Shown one piece after another: positions 2,167 to 19,920 of a DNA stretch of 24,000 nucleotides. Origin of the DNA: an uncultured delta proteobacterium. GTDB lineage: Bacteria; Desulfobacterota; Desulfobacteria; Desulfobacterales; CAWDIC01. The stretch covers positions 169,608 through 193,607 of the forward strand of contig CAWDIC010000007.1 of NCBI GenBank assembly GCA_963802265.1, written 5' to 3'. Every line of letters begins with the position of its first letter. Positions within the stretch are counted from its first letter, which is position 1. The translations under genes were made by a program, and so were the position numbers. Under the pieces are notes generated by a model, which worked only from the letters and a program-made list of their open reading frames with translations, was not told the origin of the DNA and did no database searches.

Positions 2167-2210
2167 ATAAAATCGCAGGGCGATTTTATATGACGCGACT
2201 GCGTCGCTCC
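2167..2210 (-). repeat. Double-hairpin (DH) element, copy 1
   Basis: ATAAAATCG caggg CGATTTTAT atgac GCGAC tgc GTCGC tc. On the minus strand it sits 26 nt upstream of the ThiS-like start. Confidence 0.85.
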
Positions 2211-2224
2211 ATAAAGGGCTTTTA

Positions 2225-2426
2225 TATCTCACAGAGACAGAGCACAGAGTTTTATTCGAATTTTTCAAAGAAGATTCAGATTTTAGCCCAATCTTCGCTT
2301 ATCCTTGTTTTATTATCAATATAACGTATTTTAATATATACGTTTTCCTGATTTTTCCTCTCAAAAAATCAGGAAAAGAACAATCTTTGTGATCTCTGTG
2401 GGCTCGAGCGAAGCGGGCGAGAGATA
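2225..2426. mobile_element. CTCTGTG-terminal inverted-repeat element, copy E1 (MITE-like)
   Basis: Left end: TA TCTC ACAGAG ACAGAG CACAGAG. Right end: hairpin 2343-2377 (loop CCTCTCA), then CTTTGTG at CTCTGTG GGCTCGAGCGAAGCGGGC GAGAGA TA. Confidence 0.7.
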
Positions 2427-2528
2427 GATAGAGCAATTCGTCGCCTCACTATTATTGCATAGCCCCTTACGGTTGAAATTGTCAATAAGTCACAAAATGT
2501 TGATTTTAACCTTCGCTGATTTAGTTTT

Positions 2529-2572
2529 GAGCGGCGAAGCCGCGTCAAATAAAATCGTCAAAGCGATTTTAT
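2529..2572 (+). repeat. DH element, copy 2 (compensated first stem)
   Basis: GA GCGGC gaa GCCGC GTCAa ATAAAATCG tcaaag CGATTTTAT, immediately followed by ATG 2573. Confidence 0.85.
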
Positions 2573-3491
2573 ATGGATATAATTTAACCATCATCCCCAT
2601 CTTTGCCGTAATCGGCCTCGGGTGTATTGCCCGATGATTGGGTTCATCAGGAAAGAGTTTTTGGAACCGGCCAACCGGCTGGTTTATTATCTCGCGATTC
2701 CTGCAATGATTTTCCGTTCTATAGCTCAAACTTCACTTAAAACCCAGTTCGATATCACGGTGATCGCGGTTACATTATTAGCCGTGATTGCCTCTTTTGT
2801 AGTCGTTTGGTCGGCTGGTGCGATATTTCGTGTAAAAAAATCACAATTGGGCACATTTGTACAGAGTTCCGTGCATGGCAATCTGGGCTATATCGGCTTG
2901 GCGGTTGCATTTTACTATCTGGGAAGCGATGGGTTGACCCGTGCAAGTATTATTGCCGGCTTTGTGATGATTCTGCAGAATCTGTTGGCGGTTACAGCCT
3001 TGCAATCGTTCGGCCCGAGAGGTTTGGGTGCAAGAAAGTGGTTGAAAAGTTTAGGAAAAATTGCCGGAAATCCTGTAATCATATCTGCCTTGGCTGGAAT
3101 TGTATTCTCGGTTGCCGCAATACCAATACCGGTAGTGGTGGATCGGAGCTTGAAAATATTAGCAGGAATGGCGTTACCCATGGCACTGCTGGTAATCGGT
3201 GCATCGTTGTCCTTTGAACAAATCTGGCAACGCATCATACCTGTCTGCACGACTGGTATGTTTAAACTCCTTTTGTTGCCCGGTATCGGATTTATGCTCT
3301 ATACATTTTTTGATGTCAGTGCCTATGATTACCTCCCGGGTCTGATCTTGCTTGCATCACCCACGGCTACGATTGCTTATGTAATGGCCAAAGAAATGAA
3401 TGGCGATGCCGATTTTGCCGGTGCGGCCATTTCTTTGAGTACGCTCCTTTCCGGAGTGACGTTTATCATATGGCTAAATTTAGCGATATGA
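2573..3491 (+). CDS. AEC (auxin efflux carrier) family membrane transporter; two -1 frameshifts near 2583-2585 and about 2630
   Basis: Track ORF 2622..3491 is polytopic and hydrophobic with AEC-like segments. The N-terminus LTIIPIFAVIGLGCIAR sits in the frame of ORF 2455..2637. ATG at 2573 gives MDII and joins it if the T-run is one base longer. The start is therefore uncertain. Confidence 0.7.
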
Positions 3492-3493
3492 AG

Positions 3494-3530
3494 ATAAAAT
3501 TATTACACGATTTTATATAGCGCGACGACA
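3494..3530 (-). repeat. DH element, copy 3 (degenerate)
   Basis: ATAAAATtattaca CGATTTTAT atag cGCGAC gac..; the second arm of the GC hairpin is decayed. It starts 3 nt after the transporter stop. Confidence 0.6.
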
Positions 3531-3554
3531 TTGAGAAGCTTTTAGCGTTTAAGC

Positions 3555-3587
3555 GCCAGTGTTTACAACCATGGGGCTGGCTTTTTT
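3555..3587 (+). terminator. Weak terminator-like hairpin after the transporter gene
   Basis: GCCAG (3555-3559) pairs with CTGGC (3577-3581) around a long loop, followed by TTTTTT. Confidence 0.3.
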
Positions 3588-3675
3588 CATATGAAATATA
3601 GTAACATTTACATATACGACAGTTTGTGCGATTTTGGATAGATTCGGCGTCATCCTTTTTTGAAATAATGATTTA

Positions 3676-3704
3676 TTACTATTTTCTTTCTAATTATGTA
3701 ATAT
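3676..3704 (+). promoter_or_regulatory. Candidate sigma-70 promoter for the epimerase gene
   Basis: TTACTA (3676-3681), 17-bp spacer, TAATAT (3699-3704). This would give a ~190-nt leader containing the GT-rich/CA-rich and AACTGGC arrays. Confidence 0.35.
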
Positions 3705-3726
3705 CATCCCTATAACGAAGGACTTA

Positions 3727-3783
3727 GGTTCATTGGGTTCGTTGGGTTTGACGACGGACAACGAGCAACAAGCAACCCACAAC
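3727..3783 (+). repeat. GT-rich then CA-rich short-period array in the epimerase leader
   Basis: GGTTCATTGGGTTCGTTGGGTTTG followed by ACGACGGACAACGAGCAACAAGCAACCCACAAC. The two halves are roughly complementary, and the second contains the ACGGACAAC motif. Confidence 0.7.
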
Positions 3784-3847
3784 ATTAATGACCTTGCTGA
3801 AAGCGACAAATTGAAGGGTGAATGACCATAAAGACGTTTCATTCATT

Positions 3848-3881
3848 GGCAAACTGGCGTAACTGGCCAACTGGCTAAACC
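3848..3881 (+). repeat. AACTGGCN octamer array
   Basis: GGCAAACTGGCGTAACTGGCCAACTGGCTAAACC, 17 nt upstream of the epimerase ATG. Confidence 0.75.
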
Positions 3882-3897
3882 AAAAAAGGTGTATACA

Positions 3898-4942
3898 ATG
3901 TCGTTTAAGTTTAAAAATGTATTGGTAACCGGAGCAGCAGGGTTCATTGGTTTTCACCTTTCGCTGCGACTGTTGAAAGAGGGTTACCAGGTAACAGGCC
4001 TGGACAACCTGAATGCCTATTATGACGTCAAGCTAAAGGAATCACGACTTGAACTACTCAAAAAGCACGACAAATTCAAGTTTCAAAAGGTCGACCTGGC
4101 CGACCTAAGCGAACTGGAAGCACTTTTTAAGGAGACAGAACTATGAAGTTGTCGTCAACATGGCGGCTCAGGCAGGCGTTCGCTATTCCCTAACGAACCC
4201 CCACGCCTATGTCGATGCCAATATTGTCGGTTTTGTGAATATTCTTGAATGCTGCCGTCATTCAGCGTCAAGCATCTGGTGTATGCGTCGTCCAGTTCCG
4301 TGTATGGCGCCAACACCAATATGCCGTTTTCGATTCACCACAATGTGGATCATCCGGTTTCCCTTTATGCGGCTTCCAAGAAAGCCAACGAACTCATGGC
4401 GCATACCTACAGCCACCTGTACAAGTTGCCATGTACCGGACTCAGGTTTTTTACGGTATATGGTCCATGGGGGCGTCCGGACATGGCGCTCTTTTTGTTT
4501 ACACGGGCCATTATCGAAGGCAAGCCCATCAAGGTTTTCAACCATGGCAAAATGCTGAGAGATTTTACCTACATCGATGACATCATCGAAGGCGTTTACC
4601 GCGTTATGCATAAACTCCCAGAGCCAAATTTATCGTGGAGCGGGTGATGCACCCGATCCGGGTACATCCTACGCCCCTTTCAAATTGTACAACATCGGGA
4701 ACAACAATCCCGTCGAACTTACTGAATTCATCGCAGCCATCGAGGAAACACTTGGCAAACAAGCCCAGAAAGAATACCTCGACTTGCAGCCAGGCGATGT
4801 GCCTGCCACTTATGCCGATGTCGACGATTTGATCAATGATGTTGGGTTTAAGCCGTCCACGCCGCTAAAAGTCGGGATCGCACGTTTCATCGAGTGGTAT
4901 GAGAATTACTATTCTTATAAAATCGTGAAACGATTTTATTGA
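3898..4942 (+). CDS. NAD-dependent epimerase/dehydratase (UDP-glucuronate 4-epimerase-like); three frameshifts
   Basis: Motifs seen: [14 protein letters not shown] Rossmann motif, [30 protein letters not shown] (YxxxK) and [14 protein letters not shown], spread over track ORFs 3889.., 4160.., 4249.. and 4577..4942. SD AAGGTG lies 7 nt before ATG 3898. Confidence 0.8.
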
Positions 4943-4958
4943 CGCGACGATGGCGCTC
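4917..4958 (-). repeat. DH element, copy 4
   Basis: ATAAAATCG tgaaa CGATTTTAT tgac GCGAC gat GGCGC tc. It encodes the last codons (YKIVKRFY stop) of the epimerase. Confidence 0.85.
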
Positions 4959-5063
4959 TATTTGACTGATTAAAAAATTTTTTAGTTCGGACAGCCTTGA
5001 AGGCTTATCAGTGTTTTACAAGATCTACAGGGTTTCAGTTCTTACGGGCTTTTGAAGGTGCAT

Positions 5064-5103
5064 AGCGACAGTCGCATTAAATAAAATCGCATAGCGATTT
5101 TAT
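5064..5103 (+). repeat. DH element, copy 5
   Basis: A GCGAC a GTCGC attaa ATAAAATCG catag CGATTTTAT. It lies 54 nt upstream of the leader-peptide ATG and is inverted relative to copy 4, about 105 bp away. Confidence 0.85.
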
Positions 5104-5156
5104 ATTAACATGATCAGGGTTTTCATAGAATACCTTGAAATTAAAGGATTAATATT

Positions 5157-5204
5157 ATGAATAATTTTTCGGGCAATTATTATTTTTATTACTGGCTACT
5201 ATAA
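5157..5204 (+). CDS. Candidate leader peptide MNNFSGNYYFYYWLL (15 codons, 7 aromatic, 6 consecutive)
   Basis: ATG 5157 is preceded by AAGGA (5144-5148) at 8-nt spacing. Codons read AAT AAT TTT TCG GGC AAT TAT TAT TTT TAT TAC TGG CTA CTA TAA. It is followed by alternative helices and a terminator, and lies upstream of the DAHP synthase gene. Confidence 0.55.
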   Translation: MNNFSGNYYFYYWLL

Positions 5205-5253
5205 TACCGGTTTGCCCGAAGTGCGCTGATACAAGCAAAAACAACTAAGAATT

Positions 5254-5296
5254 AAAAGCCGTGGCAAACTAAAAACTGCCACGGCTTTTTTTTTTT
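5254..5296 (+). terminator. Intrinsic terminator (attenuator 3:4 helix)
   Basis: GCCGTGGCA (5258-5266) pairs with TGCCACGGC (5277-5285) around a 10-nt loop. An A-run precedes it and 11 consecutive T (5286-5296) follow. Confidence 0.75.
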
Positions 5297-5349
5297 CGCA
5301 TAGAAAACTGTACAAGCTGATAGGTGAAATGGTTAATTGTAGGTGGAGT

Positions 5350-5591
5350 TATCTCTCGCCCGCTCCGCTCGAGCTCGCAGAGTTCTCAGAGTTTTTCATT
5401 TTGCTGATTTTTTGAGAGGAAAAATCAGTAAAAAATAATTTTAACTATATGTTGCAGTAAAATTAGACTTTTTTGTGGCTTTTCGATACTTTAATTAACC
5501 AGATGATAACATGTGATGATTTATTGAGAATCCTCCTCTCAAGGATTCTCAATTAATATTCTCTGTGGCTCTGTGATCTCTGTGAGAGATA
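5350..5591. mobile_element. CTCTGTG-TIR element, copy E2
   Basis: Left: TA TCTCTC GCCCGCTCCGCTCGAGC t CGCAGAG tt CTCAGAG, then hairpin 5404-5428 (loop TGAGAGG). Right: hairpin 5524-5552 (loop CCTCTCA), then CTCTGTG g CTCTGTG at CTCTGTG AGAGA TA. It ends 31 nt before the aroG ATG. Confidence 0.75.
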
Positions 5592-5622
5592 ATCATAAAA
5601 ACATGGGTGAGGGACAACGACA

Positions 5623-6708
5623 ATGAAACAGACACAGGACCTTCGGGTCAGGGACTATAAGAATTTGATGAGCCCGAGAGAACTGGAAAAGACACTTCCA
5701 ATGACGACCGAAGCCAACGAGACTGTCGTTGAGGGACGCAAGGCAATTGAGGACATACTGGCACGCAAAGATAAGCGCCTCCTGGTTATTACAGGCCCTT
5801 GTTCGATCCACGATGAAAAGGCAGCCTTTGAATATGCTGAAAAATTGTGCGATTTGAAGAAAAGGGTCGAAAAAACACTTTGCGTGGTCATGCGGGTCTA
5901 TTTCGAAAAACCACGTACAACGGTTGGGTGGAAAGGCATGATCAATGATCCTTATTTGGATGGCACCTGCGACATGACCGAAGGGTTGGTAAAAGCTCGC
6001 CAGATATTACTAAAAATCACCGAAATGGGAATACCAACAGCAACGGAATTGCTGGAGACCATCACACCGCAATATGTTGCCGACCTGGTGTGCTGGGCTG
6101 CCATCGGGGCACGTACAACCGAATCGCAGACCCATCGGGAGATGGCAAGCGGTCTGTCTATGACGGTAGGGTTTAAAAACGGTACGGACGGGAACCTTGA
6201 CACTGCCATCAACGCCATGCTCGCCGCGCGTGCCCCCCAAAGTTTTTTAGGAATAGATCCTGAAGGCCTGACAAGTATCGTAAATACAAATGGTAATCCG
6301 TCTGGGCATATTGTACTGCGAGGAGGTAAACATCCCAATTACGATTCTCGCAGCATCGAGGAAGCACGTATGGAGCTCATCGGTAAAAATTTGCCGGATA
6401 CGATTATGGTCGACTGCTCCCACGCCAATTCCAAAAAGAAATTTCAAGGCCAGGCACTTGTGTGGAAAAACATCATCGATCAGCGCATCAACGGGAATGA
6501 TGCCATCATCGGTATGATGATGGAGAGCAATTTATTCGAAGGAAACCAGAAATACAATGGTGATGCTTCGGCTTTGAAGTACGGCGTATCGATTACAGAC
6601 GAGTGCATTTCATGGGAAACAACCGAAAGCTTGCTGCTATATGCACATGAGAAACTGGCAAACCGTACCAACCGGTCAATAGGACTGAGGACGCAGAGGA
6701 CTAAGTAA
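5623..6708 (+). CDS. aroG: 3-deoxy-D-arabino-heptulosonate-7-phosphate synthase, class I (AroF/G/H type)
   Basis: Track ORF has the hallmarks [38 protein letters not shown] and VDCSHANS. The last ~10 codons (IGLRTQRTK) are encoded by a GGACTNAG repeat array. Confidence 0.9.
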
Positions 6709-6764
6709 ATTTACGGCCTTGGAACCGCGGTCCGCAAGCAAAAGAAAACTCAGTCCATAAGTCC
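6681..6764. repeat. GGACTNAG octamer triplet and its inverted partner around the aroG stop
   Basis: AGGACTGAG GACGCAGA GGACTAAG (6681-6705), then stop, then ACTCAGTCC ATAAGTCC (6748-6764). GGAACCGCGGTCC lies in between. Confidence 0.65.
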
Positions 6765-6787
6765 TAATAACTAAATCCTTATTGATG

Positions 6788-6843
6788 TCCTTGAGCATCC
6801 TCTTGCTCAAGGATTCTCTAATAAATACGTCTGTGACTCTGTC
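6788..6843 (+). repeat. Half element E4 (right-end type)
   Basis: Hairpin TCCTTGAGCA tcctct TGCTCAAGGA (6788-6813), then GTCTGTG a CTCTGTC. It lies 19 nt upstream of the CM-aroE ATG. Confidence 0.6.
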
Positions 6844-6861
6844 AACTTTGATAGCTAAAGT

Positions 6862-7979
6862 ATGCAAACAAAGCAAAAACCCAACATCGGCGTGCTTCGA
6901 GATGAGATTGACGCCATCGACAAGCAGATTCTCGAGTTGATCAACCAGCGTATTTCGATTGCCGTTGAAATTGGAAAGGCCAAAGAGCAGAGCGGCACCC
7001 AGGTTGTCGACAATGCCCGTGAGCTCGCTTTAATCAAGCGGCTTTTAGAGCTCAATAAGGGTCTTTTGAAAAACAGCGCTTTGCGCCGTATTTTCCATGA
7101 TATCATTACAGCATCGCGTGAAGCCCAAAGAGCGGAGGCAACGCCAAGCCTCGGCCCTGATTCCCAAGCCCTTTTCTGTGTTTTCGGTGATCCGGTTGGT
7201 CACAGTCTCAGCCCGGTAATGCACAACAGTGCTTTTGCTTACACAGGCTACAATGGCCTTTACATGGCATTCAAGGTGAGCGACATCTCCCAGGCGATTG
7301 CCGGTATGCGTGTATTGGGAATCAAAGGCGCCAGCATTACGATCCCGCACAAGATTAATGTAATGGGCCAAATAGATGAAATCGACGATATGGCCAAGGA
7401 TATTGGTGCAGTGAATACTGTCGTCAACCAGAATGGCGTTTTACGAGGCTTCAACACGGACTGTCATGGCGCAACTGCGGCATTGTTGAAGCAAACTAAA
7501 ATAGCCAACCGTAGCGTAGCGATTTTCGGCGCAGGAGGGGCGGCCAGGGCGATCGGTTTTGGTATCGTTGCCGAGAGTGGCAAGGTAACAATCTATAACC
7601 GATCTAAAGACAAAGGCGAGGCCCTTGCAAAAGCATTGAATGCAAATTTTTATCCATTATCAGAGATTAAGCAGTTAGAATGCGACATATTGATCAATAC
7701 GACTTCTGTAGGTATGTCACCCCATGTGCAGGCAACTCCAATTCCGGGAAAACTGTTGAAAAAAGAAATGGTCGTCATGGACATCGTCTACAACCCCATC
7801 CAAACGCGTTTCTTAAAGGACGCTAAAAGGCAGCTGGATGCACGGTAATCGAAGGAGTCGACATGTTCGTTTATCAGGGCGCCTCCCAGTTCGAACTGTG
7901 GACCGGTAAAAAAGCTCCGGTGCAGGTAATGAAAAAAGCAGTCTTGGATGCAATAAATAAAAATGAGCGCGGTGAATAG
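6862..7979 (+). CDS. aroE: Chorismate mutase (AroQ class) fused to shikimate 5-dehydrogenase; one -1 frameshift near 7829-7830
   Basis: The N-terminal ~90 aa read LRDEIDAIDKQILELINQRISIAVEIGKAKE...ELALIKRLLELNKG (CM type 2). Then comes FCVFGDPVGHSLSPVMHNSAF...SITIPHK...NTD...IFGAGGAARA (AroE). The C-terminus continues in another frame as AAGCTVIEGVDMFVYQGASQFELWTGKKAP up to TAG 7977-7979. Confidence 0.85.
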
Positions 7980-7993
7980 TAGGATGGTTTTTA

Positions 7994-8209
7994 TATCTCT
8001 CGCCCGCTTCGCTCGAGCCCGCAGAGCTCTCAGAGATACATTATAGTTGCCTGATTTTGAGAGGAAAAATCAGGCCAACAAATAAGATCTTAGAACATTG
8101 TATGCTCGATAGGCAAGAAGCGATACCGAAGGTGAGCTATAAAATCAGAATCTTCCCCTCAAAGATTCTGAAAAATAACTCTGTGCCTCTGTGGTCTCTG
8201 TGAGAAATA
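7994..8209. mobile_element. CTCTGTG-TIR element, copy E3
   Basis: Left: TA TCTCTC GCCCGCTTCGCTCGAGC c CGCAGAG ct CTCAGAG, then hairpin 8050-8074 (loop GAGAGGA). Right: hairpin 8145-8171 (loop CCCCTCA), then CTCTGTG c CTCTGTG gt CTCTGTG AGAAA TA. Confidence 0.75.
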
Positions 8210-8221
8210 ATAATTCTACTT

Positions 8222-8262
8222 AAGCGACACGGTCCTCATATAAAATTAGTGGAGCATTTTAT
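8222..8262 (+). repeat. DH element, copy 14 (degenerate), carries the aroA SD and start
   Basis: AA GCGAC acg GTCct cat ATAAAATta GTGGAG cATTTTAT G. Compare copy 10. Confidence 0.6.
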
Positions 8263-9527
8263 GTATCAAGTCAAAACACAGCCAATTAAAAATACGACCA
8301 TAACCGTTCCCGGGTCCAAAAGCTTCACCCATCGTTTCCTGATCTCTGCGGCGCTGGCAGATGGACAAAGCACTCTGAAAAACTGCCTTCACAGTGAAGA
8401 CACCACTTATACGATGTCCGCTTTACAACAAATGGGAGTCGCCCATAAAAAACAGGGCCAATCGGTTGTTGTTGAAGGCACGAGCGGAGATTTAAGTGCA
8501 CCTGCCGAGCCGATATACCTTGGCAACTCCGGTACATCCATGCGGTTGTTGACAGCTTTGGCAGCCATAAGCAATGGGAAACATGTTTTGACGGGCACAG
8601 AGCGTATGTGTCAGCGTCCTATTGGTGATTTGATCGAAGCGCTTACGCAGATAGGCATCGATGCCCACTCGAAAAATGGGGATGGTTGTCCTCCGGTTGA
8701 AATCAAAGGCGGGCAGCTTGCCGGCGGTAAAGTCGATCTGAATTGCAAAACCAGCAGCCAGTTTCTTTCCGCTCTGTTGTTGATTGCGCCTTATACGACC
8801 GAGGGACTCGATATTCACGTGATCGAGGGGCCGGTATCAAAGCCGTATATCGACATGACGATCCAAACCATGGGCAAATTGGGCGTCGATGTTGATAGCG
8901 AAGGATATCAAAAATATTTTGTCCAGGGGGGGCAGAAATATCAGGCCGGTGAATATTTCGTTGAAGCCTGATTGCTCCCAGGCCAGTTACTTCTGGGCGG
9001 CCGCAGCGATTACCGGTGCTTCGATTAAAATTGAAGGCATTCAACAGGATTCTATCCAAGGTGATGTCCGGTTGGTTGAAATTTTTAGGGCAATGGGGTG
9101 TGATGTGTTTCCGGAATCTGATGGTATCAGGGTTACAGGTGAACCTCTTCGAGCTGTCCGGGTCGATATGTCCGACATGCCGGATATGGTGCCGACGCTT
9201 GCGGTAGTCGCAGCCTTCGCCAAAGGGACAACCGTGATCGAAAACGTTGCCCATTTAAAAGCCAAAGAGAGCGATCGTATCGCATCGGTGGCCAACGAGT
9301 TGGAAAAAATGGGCATCCATGTCAAAAGGGCAGGGGATGGTTTGAGCATCAAAGGAGGAAACCCGAAAGGCGCTGAAATAGACACCTACGACGATCACCG
9401 CATCGCCATGAGCTTTGCCGTGGCAGGCCTTAAAACACCTGGTGTCGTTATAAAAAACGAAGATTGCGTTAAAAAGTCCTTCCCTAATTTCTGGCGGGTC
9501 TTTGAGACCCTATATAAAATCGCTTAA
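8261..9527 (+). CDS. aroA: 3-phosphoshikimate 1-carboxyvinyltransferase (EPSP synthase); one +1 frameshift near 8966-8968
   Basis: Motifs: VPGSKSFTHRFLISAALA, LGNSGTSMRLL, then after the shift PDCSQASYFWAAAAITG, KESDRI and DDHRIAMSFAVAG. GGAG lies 6 nt before ATG 8261. Confidence 0.9.
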
Positions 9528-9557
9528 CGATTTTATATTTGGCGCGACTTCGTCGCT
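9514..9557 (-). repeat. DH element, copy 6
   Basis: ATAAAATCG cttaa CGATTTTAT atttggc GCGAC ttc GTCGC t. It encodes the last aroA codons (LYKIA stop). Confidence 0.85.
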
Positions 9558-9603
9558 TAATTCAACTCACATATGAAAATAATTTAATTTGAAAATATTA
9601 TAT

Positions 9604-10316: not shown

Positions 10317-10335
10317 ATTATATGGAGCATTATAC

Positions 10336-11424
10336 ATGTCCAGCACTTTCGGTACATTATTTAGAGTTACAACATTCGGCGAATCACATTCCAAAGGTGT
10401 CGGGCGTTATCCTCGATGGCTGTCCTCCCAAGATGTCGCTAAGCGAAGACGATATTCAACCTCAGCTCGATCGCCGCCGCCCTGGACAGAGCAAATTGAC
10501 GACTGAGACGAAGCGAAGCGGATCGTGTCACCATTTTATCCGGGGTTGAAAACGGTAAAACGTTTGGGACACCCATAGGCATGTTTGTGCCCAACAAGGA
10601 TCATCGACCAGGCGATTACAAGGCCATGCAGGATATACCGCGTCCGTCCCATGCGGATTATACCTATCAGATGAAATACGGAATTCGGCCGTCCAGCGGG
10701 GGAGGGCGGTCGAGCGCCAGAGAGACAATCGGCCGGGTTGCCGCTGGCGCCATTGCTGAGAAGATTCTTTTTGAAAGAGCCGGTGTTGAGATTGTCGCAT
10801 GGGTGAGTTCCATCGGCGATATCGATGCCCACGGAATTGATATCGGAACAAATTACACGCCTGCAAGTCGATGAATCACCGGTTCGTTGTCCTGATCCTG
10901 AGATAACCGAAAAAATGGTGCGGAAGGTAAAGGAGGTAAAAGCAGCCTCCGATTCAGTGGGAGGTATTGTATCGTGTGTTTGTCGATTTGTTCCACCTGG
11001 TTTGGGTGAACCGGTTTTCGATAAAATGGAAGCCAAGCTGGCCCATGCCATGTTGTCGATTCCTGCAACCAAGGGATTTGAAATAGGTTCCGGTTTCGCT
11101 GGATCCAGAATGCACGGATCCGAGCACAATGATCCGTTTATGAAAAAGGGGGGTGGGTTAGGGACCGTGACCAATTTTAGCGGCGGCATACAGGGAGGCA
11201 TTACAAATGGTGAGCCGATCGTATTTCGAGTGGCATTCAAACCCCCGGCAACAATTGGACTTGCCCAGCAGACCGTTGACTTTGAGGGCCAACAAGTAAC
11301 CCTGGAAGCCAAAGGCCGCCACGACCCCTGTGTCGTCCCAAGAGCCGTCCCAATCGTAGAGGCGATGGCAGCTTTAGTCTTATGCGACATGTTTTTAATC
11401 CAAGCCACAAGAAGTCACAAATGA
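10336..11424 (+). CDS. aroC: Chorismate synthase; three +1 frameshifts (10402-10404, 10520-10521, about 10840-10870)
   Basis: ATG 10336 gives [23 protein letters not shown]. It continues as [33 protein letters not shown], then [33 protein letters not shown]...RPSHADYTY..., then VRCPD...[13 protein letters not shown]...[18 protein letters not shown]. Confidence 0.85.
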
Positions 11425-13019: not shown

Positions 13020-13062
13020 GAGCGACATCGTCGCGTCACATAAAATCGTCTAACGATTTTAT
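13020..13062 (+). repeat. DH element, copy 7
   Basis: GA GCGAC atc GTCGC GTCAc ATAAAATCG tctaa CGATTTTAT. It shares an extended left flank TTTTGGTAGAGCGACATCGTCGCGTCA with copy 8. Confidence 0.9.
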
Positions 13063-13064
13063 CC

Positions 13065-13098
13065 TTGAAAACCGTTCAGGTATGATATATTGTCATAC
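13065..13098 (+). promoter_or_regulatory. Candidate toxin-antitoxin promoter with operator-like inverted repeat
   Basis: TTGAAA (13065-13070) with TATATT/TATTGT at 15-17 bp. It overlaps the inverted repeat GTATGA-N7-TCATAC (13080-13098) just upstream of the RHH antitoxin gene. Confidence 0.4.
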
Positions 13099-13112
13099 TG
13101 GAGGTGATAAAA

Positions 13113-13355
13113 ATGGCAGCTTCAAAAATAGCAATTACAATTGATGATAGAATGTTGAAACAGCTTGATATATTAGTCAAATCAAAGTTTTTTCCAAACC
13201 GCAGCAAGGCTATTCAACAGGCTGTTGCCGAGAAACTGATGCGTCTTGAAAAGAACCGTTTATCTCAAGAATGTGCAAAACTTGATCCAGCATTCGAGCA
13301 ATCCATTGCAGAAGAGGGCTTTTCAACGGAGATAGAAGAATGGCCAGAATATTAA
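13113..13355 (+). CDS. Ribbon-helix-helix (CopG/MazE-like) antitoxin
   Basis: The N-terminus [34 protein letters not shown] is typical RHH, with an acidic C-terminal tail. GGAGGTG lies 6 nt upstream. It overlaps the toxin start by 16 nt. Confidence 0.75.
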
Positions 13356-13678
13356 GAGGAGGAATTTATTGGGCCGATCTAAACCCTGTTATTGGAAGTG
13401 AGCAGGGCGGTCTACGCCCCGTTCTTGTTTTGAGCCAGAATGTTTTTAATGAGCGATCCGGCACAGTCATTGCCGTTGCATTAACGAGTCAACCGCAAAG
13501 AGCAGGATACCCTCTTACATTGGAAATTGAAAACGATGAGCTTCCCAAGAAGTCATGGGTTAAGATCAGTCAAATTCGAACGCTTTCTGTAAAGCGCATA
13601 CAAAAAAAAATTACGAAAGCATCTGAAAAAGATATTGCTCTTGTTATAGAAGGACTAAACGAAATACTTGGCGCTTAA
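13340..13678 (+). CDS. mazF: MazF/PemK-family endoribonuclease toxin
   Basis: [45 protein letters not shown]... matches the PemK/MazF fold pattern. It is 112 aa and translationally coupled to the antitoxin. Confidence 0.85.
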
Positions 13679-13708
13679 TATCGGGCATATAAATCAAGGT
13701 TTTTGGTA

Positions 13709-13751
13709 GAGCGACATCGTCGCGTCATATAAAATTGTTCCACGATTTTAT
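13709..13751 (+). repeat. DH element, copy 8
   Basis: GA GCGAC atc GTCGC GTCAt ATAAAATtG ttcca CGATTTTAT. The T opposite G would be a G-U wobble in a +-strand RNA. Confidence 0.9.
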
Positions 13752-13944: not shown

Positions 13945-13973
13945 CTCAGTCCTGAGTCCTTAGCCCTCAGTCC
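13945..13973. repeat. Heptamer array CTCAGTCC TGAGTCC TTAGCCC TCAGTCC across the kinase stop codon
   Basis: Four 7-nt units are seen directly. The minus strand reads AGGACTGAGGGCTAAGGACTCAGGACTGAG and supplies the last codons (RTEG stop) of the hybrid kinase. Confidence 0.7.
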
Positions 13974-15907: not shown

Positions 15908-15971
15908 GATAATTATTCCGCCCCACTTTTGACAATTATAGTGTTTTCCAGCTTTTGTTAAGCTAAGTTTA

Positions 15972-16113
15972 TAGAAGTGGTTTTAAAACCTCGGATCATG
16001 TTCGAGAGCAATGCGCCCCGTAGAATAGAAAGGGGAGTCCGCCTCAGGCGGATGAGCAAATTCGCGGGACAACACCGCTATTGGACATTAGAGGGGTTTT
16101 AAAACCGTTTCTA
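15972..16113. mobile_element. 142-bp MITE-like element with 19-bp terminal inverted repeats
   Basis: TAGAAGTGGTTTTAAAACC (15972-15990) matches the reverse complement of GGTTTTAAAACCGTTTCTA (16095-16113) at 17/19 positions. Internal hairpins include TCCGCC tca GGCGGA. Confidence 0.6.
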
Positions 16114-16178
16114 CATAGCATTTCAATAATTCCAATGCAATCATCAAGAAATTCACAGACGTTAAATCGTGTTGCCAA

Positions 16179-16201
16179 ATGAAATCGCTAAACGATTTTA
16201 T
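16179..16201. repeat. Solo AT-rich hairpin related to DH hairpin 2 (copy 9)
   Basis: ATgAAATCG ctaaa CGATTTTAT, with no GCGAC hairpin next to it. Confidence 0.6.
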
Positions 16202-16269
16202 TTGTGATAATAGGACTACCCAGTTAAAAAACGAAGATTATTCTAAAGTTGAATGATCCGCATTAGAAA

Positions 16270-16312
16270 AAGCGACAACGTCGCGTAATATAAAATCGTG
16301 GAGCGATTTTAT
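16270..16312 (+). repeat. DH element, copy 10, carries the SD and start of the LamG-VanZ gene
   Basis: AA GCGAC aac GTCGC GTAAt ATAAAATCG TGGAG CGATTTTAT G. GGAG lies in the loop, and the A and T of the ATG (16311-16313) lie in the stem. Confidence 0.9.
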
Positions 16313-17455
16313 GAGAACAATCAGGCCTTTGTTTTTGCTAATTATTATTGCGGCAGCCTTATTTATAATGATTGCGTATTTTGGGTTGAGACCCAAGGAT
16401 TTTAACTCAGTAAACCAAGTTAGCTGGCTTGAAGATAAAAATGGAATTCGGGTGGGGAAATATAACCTCTGTTACGCCATTGACCCATTAAAACAAACAA
16501 ATGGAATAATGACATACCCACTGCTTTTACAATAGAAATTGCGCTGAGATCCCAAGGCACACACAAGGATGGGTTTCAATTTATCATGGTCTTTCACAAT
16601 GGAAATGATTCCGAACAGTTGTTAGTCGGTCAATGGCGATCCTCTATCGTTGTCATGAATGGCAATGACTATGCCAATAAGCAAAAAACTCCAAAACTGT
16701 ATATAAAGGAGGGCTTACCGTCTCATAAAACACGCTATTTAACGATAACGACAGGATTAGATGGGACGTGTGTTTACCTTGAGGGCCAACTGGTTAGAAA
16801 GAGACGCAATTTGTTGCTTAAGATACCGACTGGTACTGTCGAAACAACACTCGTTCTGGGCAATTCCGTAAACGGCAGACACCCTTGGAAAGGTGAATTT
16901 TATGGCTTTGTACTATTCCCCTTTCAGTTGAATGCCAAGGATATTGTCATCCACCATGACGAATGGATGAAAAGTAACTCATTTTCCTCTTTTAAGAAAT
17001 ATTCTCCAAGTATTATGTATATGTTCGACGAAAATTCCGGTCATAAAGCGTTAGATCATTCAAGTGGTGGGCACCACCTTAACTTACCGGCCCAATTTCG
17101 CATTTTGCAAAAAGAAATCCTTGGCATCCCTCAACGAACCGACCTAACTACCAAATCATCAATTCAAGATATATTGCTTAACTTATTAGGATTTATTCCC
17201 TTTGCCATCGCTCTAAACGCGGTTTTTTTGCATGCCAACCGATGGACGGCCAAGCATGGCGCCTTATTGACTTTGTTGTTGTGCTTTACCATTAGCCTAT
17301 CCATTGAGCTTATACAGGCTGAAATGCCATCGCGTAGTTCACAACTAATTGATTTAATTTTAAATACATTAGGATCCGGCCTCGGCCTGGTGGTTTTTGG
17401 GCACTGGTATTCAAAGATCACGACGAATAATGAGCGACGCCGTCGCGACATATAA
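16311..17455 (+). CDS. Membrane-anchored LamG/concanavalin-like domain protein with a C-terminal VanZ-like membrane domain; one -1 frameshift about 16510-16585
   Basis: N-terminal TM segment RPLFLLIIIAAALFIMIAYF. LamG-like segment FTIEIALRS...WRSSIVVMNG...LYIKEG...LVLGNSVNGRHPWKGEFYGFVLF. C-terminal hydrophobic VanZ-like segment ...SRSSQLIDLILNTLGSGLGLVVF. Confidence 0.6.
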
Positions 17456-17474
17456 AATCGTTGCACGATTTTAT
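17432..17474 (+). repeat. DH element, copy 11
   Basis: GA GCGAC gcc GTCGC GACAt ATAAAATCG ttgca CGATTTTAT. It encodes the VanZ gene tail (RRRRDI stop) and lies 40 nt upstream of the small ORF. Confidence 0.9.
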
Positions 17475-17514
17475 TGTTTGACAAGATTTTACATATTCCA
17501 TTAGAGTGATAATT

Positions 17515-17712
17515 ATGAAATCAAATACAGAATCCCCACCAAAAAGCTCGAAGAAAGCATCTGGTTGCTCCAAGCGTCGGTCAGGGGCTGACCGACGTCA
17601 GGAATTCATCACGCCCTACATGAATTTTGTTTACAATGGCGATGAAAAACGATCGGATGAAGAGCGCCGCAAAGCTGAGGAACGACGCAAAGAATCGCGA
17701 AAAAAAGAATAA
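17515..17712 (+). CDS. Small (65 aa) highly basic Arg/Lys/Glu-rich protein of unknown function
   Basis: MKSNTESPPKSSKKASGCSKRRSGADRRQEFITPYMNFVYNGDEKRSDEERRKAEERRKESRKKE. It is bracketed by inverted copies of the double-hairpin element. The SD is weak, so coding status is uncertain. Confidence 0.45.
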   Translation: MKSNTESPPKSSKKASGCSKRRSGADRRQEFITPYMNFVYNGDEKRSDEERRKAEERRKESRKKE

Positions 17713-17716
17713 AATC

Positions 17717-17759
17717 ATAAAATCGCACAGCGATTTTATATGTCGCGACGATGCCGCTC
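17717..17759 (-). repeat. DH element, copy 12
   Basis: ATAAAATCG cacag CGATTTTAT atgtc GCGAC gat GCCGC tc. It starts 5 nt after the small-ORF stop and is inverted relative to copy 11. Confidence 0.85.
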
Positions 17760-18044
17760 TTCACGATTGGGAAAAAACCAACAACCATTCAGAATTTTAG
17801 ATTATCTCCAAGGACAAGGCGTCCAACTATTCACTACCTTTTTTATATCTTGCAGCTATGAAGCCTGTTAAGAACCTTTTACTTAGCAAGAAAATGAGTT
17901 GGAACGATACAAAGAAATTGATCGGAAAGGTTTAGGCAGGTGATTGAAAAAAGTTTATGATGGGGAATTAAAAAGAGTCAAATTAAAGGCTTGCGAGTTT
18001 TGCGTTATCGAGGCGTACTAAGTTTGAAATAACCGCGGAACGAA

Positions 18045-18071
18045 GCATAACGCAGAAGTTATGCCTTTTTT
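18045..18071 (+). terminator. Terminator-like hairpin inside a 630-bp non-coding region
   Basis: GCATAAC (18045-18051) pairs with GTTATGC (18058-18064), followed by CTTTTTT. No annotated upstream gene explains it. Confidence 0.45.
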
Positions 18072-18220
18072 AGATAGTTAAATTCATATCGCTTTGTTAT
18101 GGCACTAATAATTAAAGATATGTGTAAATTTATGAGGGGCTTTTTATCAGAGGAATTGATATAAAAGCCATTTAGAAATTTAGATCATGCCCAAGGACAA
18201 GGCATCCCACGTTTTTTAAA

Positions 18221-18401
18221 CGGAGCGTACAGGTGGTACGTGAGTATTGAAAAACTTGGGATAACGCCGTAGTTGAGCATGAGATGAATTTATAAATGGC
18301 ATTTTAGAAGCGGAGCGTGCAAAGTAATACGTGAGTATTGAAAAACACAGAATAACGCCGTGATTGGGTGCGAGGTGGCTTTATAATTGGCTTTTTAGAA
18401 G
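18221..18401. repeat. Two tandem ~90-bp direct repeats
   Basis: Units 18221-18310 and 18311-18401 share CGGAGCGT, ACGTGAGTATTGAAAAAC, ATAACGCCGT and TTTTAGAAG (roughly 70 percent by eye). The second unit overlaps the stop and last codons of the beta-barrel gene. Confidence 0.7.
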
Positions 18402-19775
18402 CGATATTCGTAGGCAGCGGTAATCGAGTTTCGATTGATCAGATTCCCCTCAACACAAATCACCGAATGCCCAGTAAGGTGATATTCAACTCCCCCAAAG
18501 AACCCCCAGTGCTTCTTTTCTTCCAACTCATCTTCATAGCGATATGTTGTAAACGGGGCAGGTAGGTTCTCGAGCTGTCTTCGGGTGGTGGTTTCACGGT
18601 AGTCTAACCAATTGCCCCCCCCAAATACGATCAAACGGGAATATACAATACCGCCTTCCAGTTTGAGCATTATTTCTCGCCAATCAGATGACTTGTGCCA
18701 TTTGTCGCCGGCTTTTGATTTATAATCCTCCTCGAACTGCCCCTTGTGGAAATCGGCCAGAAAAGCAAAGTAAAGCTTAGATGAGGTATAAAAGTCAGTT
18801 TCATACAGGTTTTGGCGCAATCCAAGTCCGTATACATACCTGGGCTCGGAAGATTCGAAGTCATAATTCGCGCCAAAGTCAGCATAAAGCTCCACGAAGT
18901 CGGTTAAACCAAAACGGGCATTGATCGTGGTCATGTGGAAAGAGGCCGGGAAGTCGTTTCTGAAGTCCGTGGTGACAGGAACAGTTGTTCTTCCAGTGTC
19001 CGTTACGCGGATTCGCTTATCAACTTCCGTATCCATTTCAATATAGGAGTGTTTTAGGCTCAAAGCGAATGAACTCTCACGCAGGTTGCGCCCCAGCCCC
19101 CTGTTTAGTTCCTTTATTTTTACAGCTCTTTGTGTTGGCTCGGGCATTTTTGCATCAACGTCGTCCTGGTGTTTGTCTTCGGTGATTTCAGCCGTTGCAG
19201 CCGCCGCCATGGTGGCATTCTGGGGAGAGGATGATGCCATCTCTGAACCGGCGGTTGTCTCTTCCATTGAAGGGGCTTCTGTGTCCACCATTGATGAAGC
19301 GCTGACAGGCGCAATTTTTTCTTTTAAAGGAATCACGGTTCCCTGTTCAGCAACTTCAGGTTTGGGTTTTTCCTGGAACTTATCGAAAAGCAAAGAAGGC
19401 TTGCTAATGATTAGCGCCTGACCCGTAAAAAGCCCCTTTTTCCTTAAATCCAGGGCCGCCGCGTCCGCTTCAGGTCTAGACTTCATAAGGCCCAATGAAA
19501 ACCCTGTTCCAGAATTCGGATTCCGTGACTTCGGTATATCTGATCACGGTTTCATAATTTAAATTTTTCAACTCGTTGGAAAATTTTACGGCCCTGTCTT
19601 CTGTTTTAAACGATCCCACCTGGATGTAGAAAAAATCTCCTTCCGCACAAAAAACTAAAGTCGGGAAAATGCAAAAAAGTGCAAAAAATAAGGATACAAG
19701 TACGGCAACCCAATGCTTTCGCCGAGCACACCTTGATTCGGCCTTTCCGTAAATTAGCCTTTTGATTTTATTCAT
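18395..19775 (-). CDS. Exported SPOR-domain protein fused to a C-terminal outer-membrane beta-barrel; one frameshift about 19476-19495
   Basis: Signal/anchor HWVAVLVSLFFALFCIFPTLVFCAEG. SPOR-like FYIQVGSFKTEDRAVKFSNELKNLNYETVIRY...WNRVFIGPY joins RPEADAAALDLRKKGLFTGQALII. An Ala/Thr/Glu/Ser linker follows, then alternating-pattern strands ending YEYRF. Confidence 0.65.
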
Positions 19776-19837
19776 GATTTCACCTGCAAGGAGAGATTAA
19801 AATATAGATATATATAATTATAATATATTATAGATTA

Positions 19838-19864
19838 ATTATATGTAAATATCAAAAATGTCAA
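19838..19864 (-). promoter_or_regulatory. Candidate sigma-70 promoter for the SPOR/beta-barrel gene
   Basis: The minus strand reads TTGACA (19864-19859), a 15-nt spacer, then TATAAT (19843-19838). The spacer is short, but homopolymer lengths are unreliable here. AGGTGA SD lies 5 nt before ATG 19775. Confidence 0.45.
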
Positions 19865-19867
19865 CAA

Positions 19868-19920
19868 ATAAAATCGCTTTACCATTTTATGCTTCATTGA
19901 AATCGCCCTGGCGATTTCAA
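19868..19920. repeat. Two adjacent hairpins related to DH hairpin 2 (copy 13 plus a variant)
   Basis: ATAAAATCG cttta CcATTTTAT (19868-19890), then TTGAAATCGC cctg GCGATTTCAA (19897-19920, a perfect 10-bp stem). Confidence 0.65.

Follow-up and report, generated by a model that had tools for sequence, protein, structure and literature searches.

A REP-like family of two-hairpin repeats with the AT-rich hairpin toward gene borders in uncultured Desulfobacterales

Described repeat systems and the new family

The REP/BIME elements of Enterobacteria, Pseudomonas, and Stenotrophomonas are short (20-40 nt), high-copy extragenic palindromes with conserved structure and compensatory changes. They are lineage-specific and vertically inherited, form mosaics with other palindromic modules, and are often located near stop codons. 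An HUH tyrosine transposase presumably processes them as single-stranded hairpins. The repeat analysed here resembled REP/BIME elements in these general features; its unit differed in consisting of two unlike hairpins, one of them AT-rich. Families carrying GTAG or CGTC tags (PMC3733652) and REPIN-RAYT systems (PMC3116915, PMC2817692) have been described, and REPs are located mostly downstream of genes (PMC3733652).

Hairpins are also recognised in other mobile systems. For IS608 and ISDra2, recognition is of subterminal hairpins on a single strand and needs an irregular, extrahelical hairpin base; insertion occurs beside a specific tetra- or pentanucleotide with no target duplication. MITE-like repeats, such as the Correia elements of Neisseria and ERIC, share with our element that they are small, non-autonomous, often immediately beside ORFs, and able to provide a stop codon, a promoter, or an RNA hairpin (reviewed for repeats touching coding borders in PMC2229807). 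Our 43-nt element is far shorter, and its alignment and flanks, unlike those of Correia and ERIC repeats, contained neither terminal inverted repeats nor a target-site duplication.

The consensus of the 43-base unit was AGCGAC-N3-GTCGC[G]T-N3-ATAAAATCGY-N3-RCGATTTTAT. An earlier note on the 24-kb stretch of DNA analysed here (the window) had claimed at least 14 copies, and 14 were found: 10 full copies, two degenerate copies, and two lone AT hairpins (Table 1). The AT hairpin, searched as ATAAAATCG-N5-CGATTTTAT, matched the window 12 times at three or fewer mismatches (0.04 expected from shuffles), with an additional copy of 6-nt loop starting at 2549, and GCGAC-N3-GTCGC matched nine times versus 0.34 expected. 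A covariance model was built from 119 copies, and the full window copies scored 53-63 bits.

Table 1. Element copies in the window, with their gene context and orthologous sites
Positions	Strand	Form	Score	Context
2167..2209	-	full copy; AT hairpin 2167-2189, GC hairpin 2195-2207	63.4 bits	24 nt between AT end and start of minus-strand ThiS-like gene; orthologous site in L190 empty, ATAAA kept
2530..2572	+	full copy, 6-nt loop, compensated GC stem (GCGGC/GCCGC)	57.2 bits	TTTTAT, then directly the AEC transporter ATG (2573); kept at orthologous site in L189 (49.7 bits), decayed in L190
3494..3530 (model match 3492-3545)	-	degenerate copy; AT hairpin with 2 mismatches, GC hairpin truncated	26.7 bits	begins 2 nt past AEC stop codon; missing behind orthologous gene in L189
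4917..4958	-	full copy	54 bits	epimerase ORF 4577-4942 runs through AT hairpin (adding YKIVKRFY), stop in spacer; Pfam Epimerase match on adjoining frameshifted ORF 4249-4647 of the same gene
5064..5103	+	full copy, 1-nt loop in GC hairpin	53.3 bits	520 nt upstream of DAHP synthase gene; one of two exceptions to the border rule
8222..8262 (model match 8218-8264)	+	degenerate copy, stable fold lost	22.6 bits	probable aroA start ATG (8261) overlaps hairpin foot; loop GTGGAG Shine-Dalgarno-like
9514..9558	-	full copy	53 bits	TAA in AT-hairpin loop terminates aroA ORF (ORF 8889-9527)
13020..13062	+	full copy	63.1 bits	mazEF cassette (mobile, 621 nt, own promoter first) begins at 13063, right after TTTTAT
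13709..13751	+	full copy, T.G wobble in AT stem (wobble copy 13729)	58.7 bits	direct repeat of 13020-13062 including 5' flank TTTTGGTA, beyond mazEF cassette; in family D2, 86% identity
16179..16201	.	lone AT hairpin ATGAAATCG...CGATTTTAT, without GC hairpin	pattern match; also matched by covariance model	
16270..16312	+	full copy	63.4 bits	hairpin foot overlaps ATG (16311) of 74-aa membrane ORF; Shine-Dalgarno-like loop TGGAG
17432..17474	+	full copy	61.1 bits	VanZ-domain ORF crosses GC hairpin, ends at AT-hairpin TAA; TTGACA box 4 nt beyond foot
17717..17759	-	full copy, G.T wobble in GC stem (wobble copy 17717)	58.2 bits	begins 4 nt past stop of 65-aa basic ORF (17515-17712); forms inverted pair (I3) with 17432-17474 around this ORF
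19868..19918	.	lone AT hairpin with one mismatch (19868-19890), then variant hairpin GAAATCGCCCTGGCGATTTC (19899-19918)	weak covariance-model matches	

Stretches with exact matches numbered more than 108 and came from about 26 assemblies of uncultured Desulfobacterales, in both short-read and long-read builds, which refuted confinement to the window or an assembly artefact. Unrelated control loci (aro loci of other taxa, 682 kb) and viral contigs yielded no covariance-model match. The family is lineage-specific and found in a clade of uncultured Desulfobacterales. An Rfam search returned no match and the GTAG or CGTC tag of the described REP super-families was not present in the element alignment, in agreement with the earlier note, which had recognised no described REP family.

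Conserved hairpins and strand asymmetry

The GC hairpin consisted of 6 bp with a conserved bulged G (A-GCGAC-N3-GTCGC-[G]-T) and the AT-rich hairpin of 10 bp (ATAAAATCGY-N3-RCGATTTTAT). In the stems, 99.3% of cells were paired, and five pairs carried double changes in 34 cells, a covariation that was matched by none of 500 shuffles. The 10th pair of the AT stem, which was not fixed by the search pattern, was U-A in 81 copies, C-G in 21, and U.G in 11, and the GC stem changed from A-U to G-C in seven copies. Subfamilies with compensated stems throughout were found, such as ATAAATACGCG/CGCGTATTTAT and ATAAATTTGCG/CGCAAATTTAT, and one orthologous locus showed an A-T to T-A swap. The A8-U24 pair was present in 105 of 119 copies, and the conserved bulged G makes the two strands of the element unequal. 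The compensatory copy claimed at 2531-2543 was real, as were the two wobble copies. The two hairpins form in single-stranded nucleic acid, and the covariation of both stems is that of conserved hairpins and not of a duplex operator. This supported the claim of an abundant, structure-preserving, REP/BIME-like family.

On the element strand the 10th pair was T.G in 11 copies versus C.A in 3 (small numbers), and 5 versus 0 in copies abutting a stop codon. The state of this pair is the one unbiased strand marker, and it tracks the element strand rather than the mRNA; in stop-abutting copies the mRNA would therefore have a C.A mismatch.

Elements were retained by orthologous genes across species instead of being shuffled. 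In unbiased orthologous comparisons at 82-90% identity, about half of the copies kept perfect stems, whereas loops and flanks drifted. A purely selfish immobile relic would not keep perfect stems, which makes gene conversion or some constraint at the host level likely.

Polarity toward gene borders

Gene borders were taken from a crude in-house ORF and hexamer caller. A CDS lay within 20 nt of the AT end in 57 of 121 copies, versus 4 of 118 for the GC end, and in the paired comparison the AT end was nearer to the CDS in 76 copies and the GC end in 32 (p=3e-5). Among the 12 oriented window copies, a CDS border was located within 55 nt of the AT end in 10 and of the GC end in 3. The gene-polar orientation described earlier therefore held copy by copy, and was sharper than claimed. 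AT-end offsets had two peaks, one at -4 relative to the stop and one 11-18 nt away from the start. At stops, the codon was supplied by the TAA within A-TAA-AATCG of the AT hairpin; at starts, the initiation codon followed 11-18 nt past CGATTTTAT, or a TTGACA box came directly after CGATTTTAT. A -35-like box after the AT end was found in 27 of 131 copies, compared to 5-11 in controls.

Unlike REPs, the element was as frequent at gene starts as at stops (half of the copies were at stop codons), presented one defined end toward the gene, and was not depleted from divergent intergenic regions, where its frequency equalled the chance expectation. The rule is that the AT hairpin faces the nearest gene border on either side, and not that it follows one RNA strand. 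Because both stems are self-complementary, orientation alters the RNA very little. The earlier step from polarity to a function at the RNA level was therefore not borne out.

An RNA-level role was weighed on its own evidence. Transcribed hairpins at the 5' and 3' borders of cistrons could shield mRNA ends against exonucleases, mark processing sites of polycistronic transcripts, or tune the initiation or termination of translation, and the AT hairpin would stay beside the Shine-Dalgarno or stop through selection for such functions. The tight spacing to both signals, the bracketing of many genes on both sides, the stop codon inside the stem, the starts at the foot, the GGAG-containing loops at 8222 and 16290, and the perfect orthologous stems amid drifting loops are consistent with this, as are RNA folds of -13 to -20 kcal/mol with z-scores of -2 to -4.7. 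However, the AT end also abuts -35 boxes, which places the element upstream of the promoter and outside the transcript of the gene, and the wobble tracks the wrong strand. Several orthologous copies were decayed or missing while the adjoining gene was unchanged. No U-tract was found 3' of the element hairpins, only four of which were terminator-like in a terminator scan. The chance frequency in divergent regions also argues against this role, and the exact DNA junctions described below are left unexplained by it. We consider gene punctuation at the RNA level rather unlikely as the reason for the family, and an RNA-level role to be secondary at best.

Exact junctions, mosaic architecture, and proposed mode of spread

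Insertions, one deletion, and the mobile mazEF cassette were all joined exactly at the foot, TTTTAT|. In L107, a 100-nt repeat lay between TTTTAT and the Shine-Dalgarno and was absent from the orthologs L026 and L053; TTAT preceded this repeat in 9 of 9 copies with 5' flank sequence. In L093, a 123-nt deletion extended from exactly past the foot to 4 nt before the Shine-Dalgarno. Empty orthologous sites in L099 and L190, the only two filled/empty comparisons, kept ATAAA. Free ATAAA sites within 20 nt of a border amounted to 16.8% versus 44.5% of element AT ends, and account for part of the border enrichment only.

In about 70 copies the left boundary of the short form was sharp, and loops such as TGCAA, TTCTA, and AAC recurred among copies, which fits amplification from master copies. 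In a long form of about 200 nt there were additional covarying hairpins, in which 12 of 43 pairs were compensated. This form is a mosaic of palindromic modules, and the 43-mer is its sharply delimited 3' module.

We put the probability at about 55% that this is a new REP/BIME-like family of dispersed non-coding hairpin repeats that acts as single-stranded DNA and has an active TTAT foot. It would then be an unusually gene-hugging REP-like family rather than a novel kind of system. We infer that folded single-stranded DNA is the form in which a trans-acting, hairpin-recognising enzyme, possibly of the HUH/Y1 type (IS200/IS605 or RAYT-like), spread the repeats and still rearranges them. Cutting and joining would take place at the AT-hairpin foot, which reads TTTAT| on one strand and |ATAAA on the other. 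Insertion would occur beside a pre-existing ATAAA, a sequence frequent at A-TAA-A stops; deletions and insertions would be anchored at the foot, and selection would remove whatever harms a gene. Together these events could push the AT end against the closest signal that the gene cannot lose (a stop, Shine-Dalgarno, or -35 box) and leave the inert GC end with its spacer; foot-anchored deletion has L093 as its single supporting case. Effects on expression (a donated stop, a start at the foot, a loop resembling a Shine-Dalgarno, AT-rich DNA upstream of promoters, and UTR hairpins) would be by-products or secondary exaptations and not the reason for the family.

The element resembled IS200/IS605 ends and PATEs, the miniature derivatives of that family, in its TTAT foot, in empty sites that keep ATAAA without target-site duplication, and in sharing genomes with the 100-nt repeat that is always 3' of TTAT. 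It differed in being too short for two like hairpins, and its implied cut is within the stem. The implied target is on the 3' side of the wobble-favoured strand, apparently the other side compared to IS608, a geometry unlike that of IS608. Strand-specific insertion of the REP/RAYT type, the other possibility raised earlier, fits better than an RNA role; a search of about 2.0 Mb of loci with IS200 TnpA and YafM queries has so far revealed no transposase, whether Y1, RAYT, or other, and neither tnpA nor tnpB was found in the examined loci.

Integron attC sites are likewise recognised as folded single strands, conserve structure more than sequence, contain extrahelical bases, and lie at or over the cassette stop codon. 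The copies might accordingly be recombination sites at which genes are inserted or swapped precisely at their borders, with a recombinase reading the folded strand and the bulged base picking the strand. The conserved extrahelical G, the overlapped stop codons, the inverted copies bracketing genes (such as I3), and the mazEF cassette, which elsewhere bears an attC-like palindrome and here lies exactly between two direct copies, point in this direction. Yet no integrase was found nearby, there was no co-oriented cassette array, and the element has two short hairpins where attC has one long R''-L''/L'-R' palindrome. Copies occurred at both gene ends, in both orientations, and beside genes of either orientation including core genes such as aroA. 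The element was missing at 20 other mazEF loci, and its orthologous retention is not that of shuffled cassettes. Cassette exchange is thus improbable, and the new REP/BIME-like family remains our preferred reading.

Two adjacent duplex operators for a dimeric regulator or nucleoid-associated protein would explain perfect palindromes with free central spacers and a promoter-proximal position, but this reading is already disfavoured and has very little probability, since spacers or loops of 4 to 7 nt, lengthened by nested hairpins to as much as tens of nt, would destroy the phasing of half-sites, single genomes contained symmetric compensatory changes, 14 sites in 24 kb stood beside unrelated genes, and half of the copies were at stop codons. 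Intrinsic, possibly bidirectional, terminators with chance sequence similarity are hardly credible either: the AT hairpin has the layout of A-tract, stem, and T-tract, T runs follow some GC hairpins, and four hairpins were flagged in the scan, but only 4 bp of the AT stem form its G+C-containing part, the T run is internal to the stem, a copy immediately preceding a Shine-Dalgarno leaves no room for a promoter and would turn the gene off, and canonical terminators stand beside elements instead of being replaced by them, as in L037.

The hairpin unit and its hosts

The double-hairpin element is a 43-nt unit of two palindromes, with 14 copies per 24 kb in the window. Its AT-rich palindrome, ATAAAATCG-N5-CGATTTTAT, was matched 12 times in the window at up to 3 mismatches versus 0.04 expected from shuffles, a 13th copy having a 6-nt loop, and GCGAC-N3-GTCGC was matched 9 times versus 0.34 expected. 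When the copies were aligned in one orientation, the unit (G/A)AGCGAC-N3-GTCGCG-N3-4-ATAAAATCG-N5-CGATTTTAT was obtained. With a covariance model trained on 119 copies, 10 window copies scored 53-63 bits. Its further hits were a copy at 3494 whose GC hairpin is truncated, a degenerate one where aroA starts (8222), and AT hairpins standing alone at 16179 and 19868. Across 682 kb of other organisms' aro loci the model gave no match. Based on this enrichment and recovery, the count of 14 and the consensus put forward in the earlier note are correct. Only 3 of 134 oriented copies were intragenic.

The window carries a Desulfobacterales-type aromatic amino-acid operon, together with genes for an AEC transporter, an epimerase, MazEF, a VanZ-domain protein, and two-component and sigma-54 regulators. 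The frame breaks in five of its genes (see table) suggest homopolymer indel errors of long-read assembly, not pseudogenes. The element extended beyond the window into related genomes: a genome scan found exact matches in more than 108 stretches, with about 26 uncultured Desulfobacterales assemblies among the matches listed, including the Olavius algarvensis Delta3 symbiont, Ca. Desulfatibia and several Danish MFD MAGs. The most contiguous assemblies with the family are CP070768.1, CAWGLD01 and CAWKCS01. One Acidobacteriota MAG among the matches listed was probably a chance hit. A scan of viral contigs returned no element copies, and a metagenome scan with DAHP synthase, which serves as a negative control, returned relatives of at most 72% identity, none with the element and none offering a usable empty site. 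The earlier note had not recognised a described family. In agreement with this, Rfam searches of the window and of 10 loci rich in the element, with E-value cut-offs set at 1, 0.1 and 0.05, gave no relevant match, and the literature searched held no account of the family for Desulfobacterales or the Olavius Delta3 symbiont. The element is real, non-random and undescribed, yet it is of a known kind of feature.

In the 119-copy alignment, 99.3% of cells were paired and 5 pairs had changed on both sides, which was equalled in 0 of 500 shuffles. The search pattern had fixed most stem positions, and the informative covariation is that of the positions left free. The free 10th pair of the AT stem covaried (U-A in 81 copies, C-G in 21, U.G in 11), and in the GC stem 7 copies had G-C, and 5 had G.U, in place of an A-U pair. 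Moreover, copies found by the model only included whole subfamilies with compensated stems, such as GAGCGGC/GCCGC together with ATAAATACGCG/CGCGTATTTAT, as well as ATAAATTTGCG/CGCAAATTTAT and ATAAAACCGC/GCGGTTTTAT. Similarly, two species read ...ATACGC... at one orthologous locus and a third read ...ATTCGC..., with the matching change in the opposite arm. The compensatory changes pointed out in the earlier note are real. Loops varied from 4 to 7 nt, with a nested hairpin in some copies. A dimeric protein binding duplex DNA would not tolerate such compensated stems and variable or nested loops, and these sequence patterns point to a single-stranded hairpin, of either DNA or RNA, as the acting form. 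Fold energies were predicted at -13 to -20 kcal/mol for RNA and about -12 for DNA, far under those of shuffled controls. The sixth pair of the GC hairpin was A-U in 105 of 119 copies and spanned a conserved bulged G, which makes the two strands non-equivalent.

Orientation towards gene borders

Gene calls for the window and 108 comparison loci (809 kb) came from a simple caller based on ORFs and hexamers, so that distances are approximate, but the polarity is clear. Of 121 AT ends, 57 lay no more than 20 nt from a coding border, versus 4 of 118 GC ends, and in the paired comparison the AT end was nearer in 76 copies and the GC end in 32 (p=3e-5). The AT end faced 64 starts and 57 stops. Three contexts covered most AT ends. 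On the 3' side of genes, the stop was usually the TAA inside A-TAA-AATCG, at offset -4 in 14 cases and -1 in 6. On the 5' side, the Shine-Dalgarno sequence lay directly 3' of CGATTTTAT, with the start 11-18 nt beyond that arm. In the third context a TTGACA-like box followed the AT end (27 of 131, versus 11 of 131 at the GC end and 5-6 in reversed controls). The same rule held for lone AT hairpins, and many genes were tightly bracketed by elements at both ends. In the window, 10 of 12 oriented copies obeyed it, and the starts at 2573, 8261 and 16311 lay on or against the foot, the outer base of the AT hairpin. The VanZ, epimerase and aroA ORFs ran into the element, which supplied their last codons or stop (tails ERRRRDI in the VanZ-domain protein, YKIVKRFY in the epimerase and YKIA in aroA). 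The strongly non-random orientation claimed in the earlier note therefore stood, whereas a single orientation relative to transcription did not: the AT hairpin points to the gene, whichever side of the gene it occupies.

ATAAA without the element is also common at stops (52 of 887 at offset -4), and its availability was considered as the sole cause of the polarity. Free ATAAA lay within 20 nt of a border in 16.8% of cases versus 44.5% of element ends (odds ratio 4, p=8e-11). Since element ends exceed free ATAAA at borders, target choice alone is insufficient and covers only part of the polarity.

The polarity had originally been read as a sign of function at the RNA level, and such a role as "punctuation" is the main rival to the DNA-level reading set out below, although we consider it unlikely. 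In its favour, about half of the pattern-unbiased orthologous comparisons kept perfect stems at 82-90% nucleotide identity while loops and flanks drifted, so some constraint or gene conversion acts on many copies; the other half of the orthologous copies were decayed or absent. However, each stem is its own reverse complement, so both orientations yield nearly the same RNA, and a copy that abuts a -35 box precedes the promoter of the adjoining gene and is hence outside that transcript. Copies lay in divergent (28), co-directional (87) and convergent (15) intergenic regions roughly in proportion to the space available, without depletion of divergent regions. The numbers are small, but on the element strand the 10th pair was T.G in 11 copies versus C.A in 3, and at stop-abutting copies, for which the mRNA is the opposite strand, T.G in 5 versus C.A in 0, which would mismatch in the mRNA. 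The -35-box copies, the T.G asymmetry and the undepleted divergent regions speak against an RNA-level role as the primary one; as an exaptation, such a role could hold alongside the DNA-level reading. An intrinsic terminator, in which an unpaired U-tract directly follows a G+C-rich stem, is very unlikely, as the T run is inside the AT stem and only 4 element hairpins passed a permissive terminator scan, a count that also weighs against the RNA role. As a general role a sigma-70 promoter was discarded, in which TAAAAT of the 5' arm would be the -10 box, the -35 position being A-rich and unconserved. Outer-stem mismatch types were dropped as a strand marker, the informative cases being too few.

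Junctions at the foot and relation to known systems

Four independent observations placed DNA joints exactly after TTTTAT at the foot. At L107, one of the comparison loci, a 100-nt repeat exactly filled the interval from the foot to a gene's Shine-Dalgarno sequence, whereas in its orthologues L026 and L053 the Shine-Dalgarno sequence lay directly on the foot, without the repeat. TTAT immediately preceded this repeat in 9 of 9 copies with a 5' flank, the 10th beginning at a contig end, which shows TTAT-directed insertion in this lineage. The repeat showed no duplication and had no Rfam match, three of its copies adjoined the double-hairpin element, and it looks like an IS200/IS605-type miniature element.

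In the window, mazEF forms a 621-nt cassette with its own promoter (13063-13683), which begins at the first base past the foot of copy 13020-13062. The cassette had 85-87% DNA identity in 20 unrelated contexts (L191-L210), where a conserved attC-like palindrome follows mazEF and the surrounding genes are all co-directional, which suggests integron cassette arrays. The attC-like palindrome is absent from the window, where the cassette sits between two direct element copies. That mazEF travels with the element was rejected, as the 20 other contexts lack it. Compared with L044, locus L093 misses 123 nt, from directly after the foot to 4 nt before the Shine-Dalgarno sequence; because the outgroup L006 has the GC hairpin, this gap is a deletion, which left only a lone hairpin of a formerly full copy, now pressed onto the next gene. 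ATAAA was retained at the AT-stem start of orthologous empty sites in two cases only (L099 versus L065, and L190 versus the window). A target-site duplication was rejected: ATAAA occurs on both sides of copy 2167 and was not seen so at other copies.

The best-supported reading is that the element represents a new clade-specific REP/BIME-like hairpin-repeat family. We infer that a trans-acting enzyme of the HUH/Y1 type handles it in the form of folded single-stranded DNA, and that the TTAT foot is the active site. The AT end would then be pressed onto the nearest essential signal by three processes together: insertion beside ATAAA, deletions and insertions anchored at the foot, and purifying selection. 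In the furthest-reaching version, a long shot to which we give a probability of about 0.12, the hairpins would be working sites of an unrecognised chromosomal system. A hairpin-guided single-stranded DNA nuclease/ligase would cut and join exactly at the TTAT foot, trim intergenic DNA up to gene borders, and dock cassettes and miniature elements, a border-marking cassette exchange unlike integrons and classical REP-RAYT.

REPs are imperfect palindromes of about 20-40 nt, and the element resembles REPs and BIMEs in being a short extragenic palindrome in many copies, and BIMEs in being combined with other palindromic modules as a mosaic. Described REPs carry a conserved GTAG (or CGTC) tetranucleotide at one end, and most of them are found on the 3' side of genes, where the flanking ORFs are co-directional or convergent (PMC3733652). 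In contrast, the 119-copy alignment had no conserved GTAG/CGTC column, the base before AGCGAC being G, A or T and GTAG preceding only a few copies (for example at window 13016 and 13705), and AT ends were about equally frequent at starts and stops, also in divergent regions. REPs are associated with RAYTs, Y1 transposases flanked by REPs in the REPtron arrangement. A tblastn search of the window and all collected loci, with IS200 TnpA and YafM queries, found no Y1/RAYT transposase. We class the element as one that works like REP-RAYT, but not as a member in the strict sense, because no enzyme was found in the loci, its geometry is off that of IS608 and the GTAG/CGTC tag is lacking. PATEs derived from IS200/IS605 have subterminal hairpins, a specific target of 4-5 nt abutting one end without duplication, and a cognate Y1 transposase. 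Here, two empty sites keep ATAAA and no duplication was seen, but the loci searched gave no transposase and the atypical geometry does not match IS608 in detail. Unlike MITEs, which have terminal inverted repeats and a target-site duplication, it has unrelated ends (AGCGAC... and ...TTTTAT) and no repeated flank across copies. Unlike integron attC sites, each one long imperfect palindrome with R/L boxes at the 3' end of a co-oriented cassette and with IntI nearby, it consists of two short hairpins and occurs at both gene ends and on both strands; no integrase was present among the window ORFs.

Few common features of bacterial genomes are as poorly understood as REP-like repeats. This family is an unusually clean handle on them, with a fixed polarity and unrelated rearrangements that all join at the foot nucleotide, and the same genomes also hold a second, TTAT-specific miniature element. 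Gene-border polarity and single-nucleotide junctions are its unusual and testable sides. If the foot is truly cleaved, REP-type repeats would be tied to IS200/IS605-type chemistry beyond those Proteobacteria for which the link was first established, and the repeats on stop codons and ribosome-binding sites would be accounted for. Moreover, with stops, starts and C-terminal extensions supplied by the element, gene callers will mis-annotate genes in these MAGs.

Long forms and other repeats of the region

The 43-mer had a sharp left boundary in about 70 copies, and other copies had an upstream extension of 15-45 nt, or one of about 155 nt that makes a long form of about 200 nt in total. The upstream extension consisted of further hairpins with compensatory changes, 12 of 43 predicted pairs being compensated (for example GCCGAAATTC/GAATTTCGGC versus GCTTCAGCC/GGCTGAAG). 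At least three further hairpin modules were present in the long form, and intermediates, solo modules and loop-nested hairpins all occurred. It could be a structured RNA or single-stranded DNA in its own right. No conserved neighbour gene was found beside it, only housekeeping genes. The extra hairpins within loops make the hairpin loops appear to be insertion sites themselves.

Positions of repeats and other features in the window and in comparison loci (L-numbers)
Feature	Position	Description
100-nt repeat	L107:4767-4869	ACCGCTTGTCATAATAATGTTCCG...CTGACAACCCCTATA; 89-99% identity across several MAGs
100-nt repeat, further copies	L057, L029, L085, L040, L018, L072, L093, L106, L016	
Long-form copies	L012:1031-1227, L025:1313-1542, L056:4714-4913, L080:1450-1649, L088:7552-7765, others	
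Extra hairpins in loops	L042:1233-1305, L069:4175-4247, L108:~1450-1525, L093:6972-7044	Inside the GC-hairpin loop (CTTTCGCCC-N3-GGGCGAAAG) or the AT-hairpin loop
~105-nt intergenic repeat	Window 2323-2435, 5350-5453, 7985-8090	CTCGAGCGAAGCGGGCGAGAGAT and a TTTTCCTGATTTTT...AAAAATCAGGAAAA hairpin
CTCAAGGATTCTC...CTCTGTGNCTCTGTG motif	Window 5538-5582, 6806-6850, 8158-8202	~15-60 nt upstream of three aro starts
14-bp hairpin	Window 5254-5289	Strong; A run on one side, T run on the other (AAAAGCCGTGGCA...TGCCACGGCTTTT)
65-aa ORF	Window 17515-17712	Lys/Arg-rich (MKSNTESPPKSSKK...); no Pfam match; exactly bracketed by an inverted element pair; own TTGACA box right after the upstream copy
Tandem duplication	Window 18237-18403	76-nt segment, 80% identity, 91-nt period
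Genes broken across frames	Window 1092-1768, 2573-2640, 3889-4942, 8249-9527, 10322-11424	ThiF-like, AEC N-terminus, epimerase, aroA, aroC, respectively

The tandem duplication lies just past the stop of a minus-strand 366-aa gene and overlaps its last codons. The three copies of the ~105-nt repeat, 80-93% identical, lay upstream of the AEC, DAHP synthase and aroA genes, and the repeat was also present in L189, an orthologue of a window site. The 14-bp hairpin lies between element copy 5064-5103 and the DAHP synthase start, and is a possible terminator or attenuator for the aro operon. The CTCAAGGATTCTC...CTCTGTGNCTCTGTG motif might be a regulatory site common to genes of this aromatic amino-acid operon.
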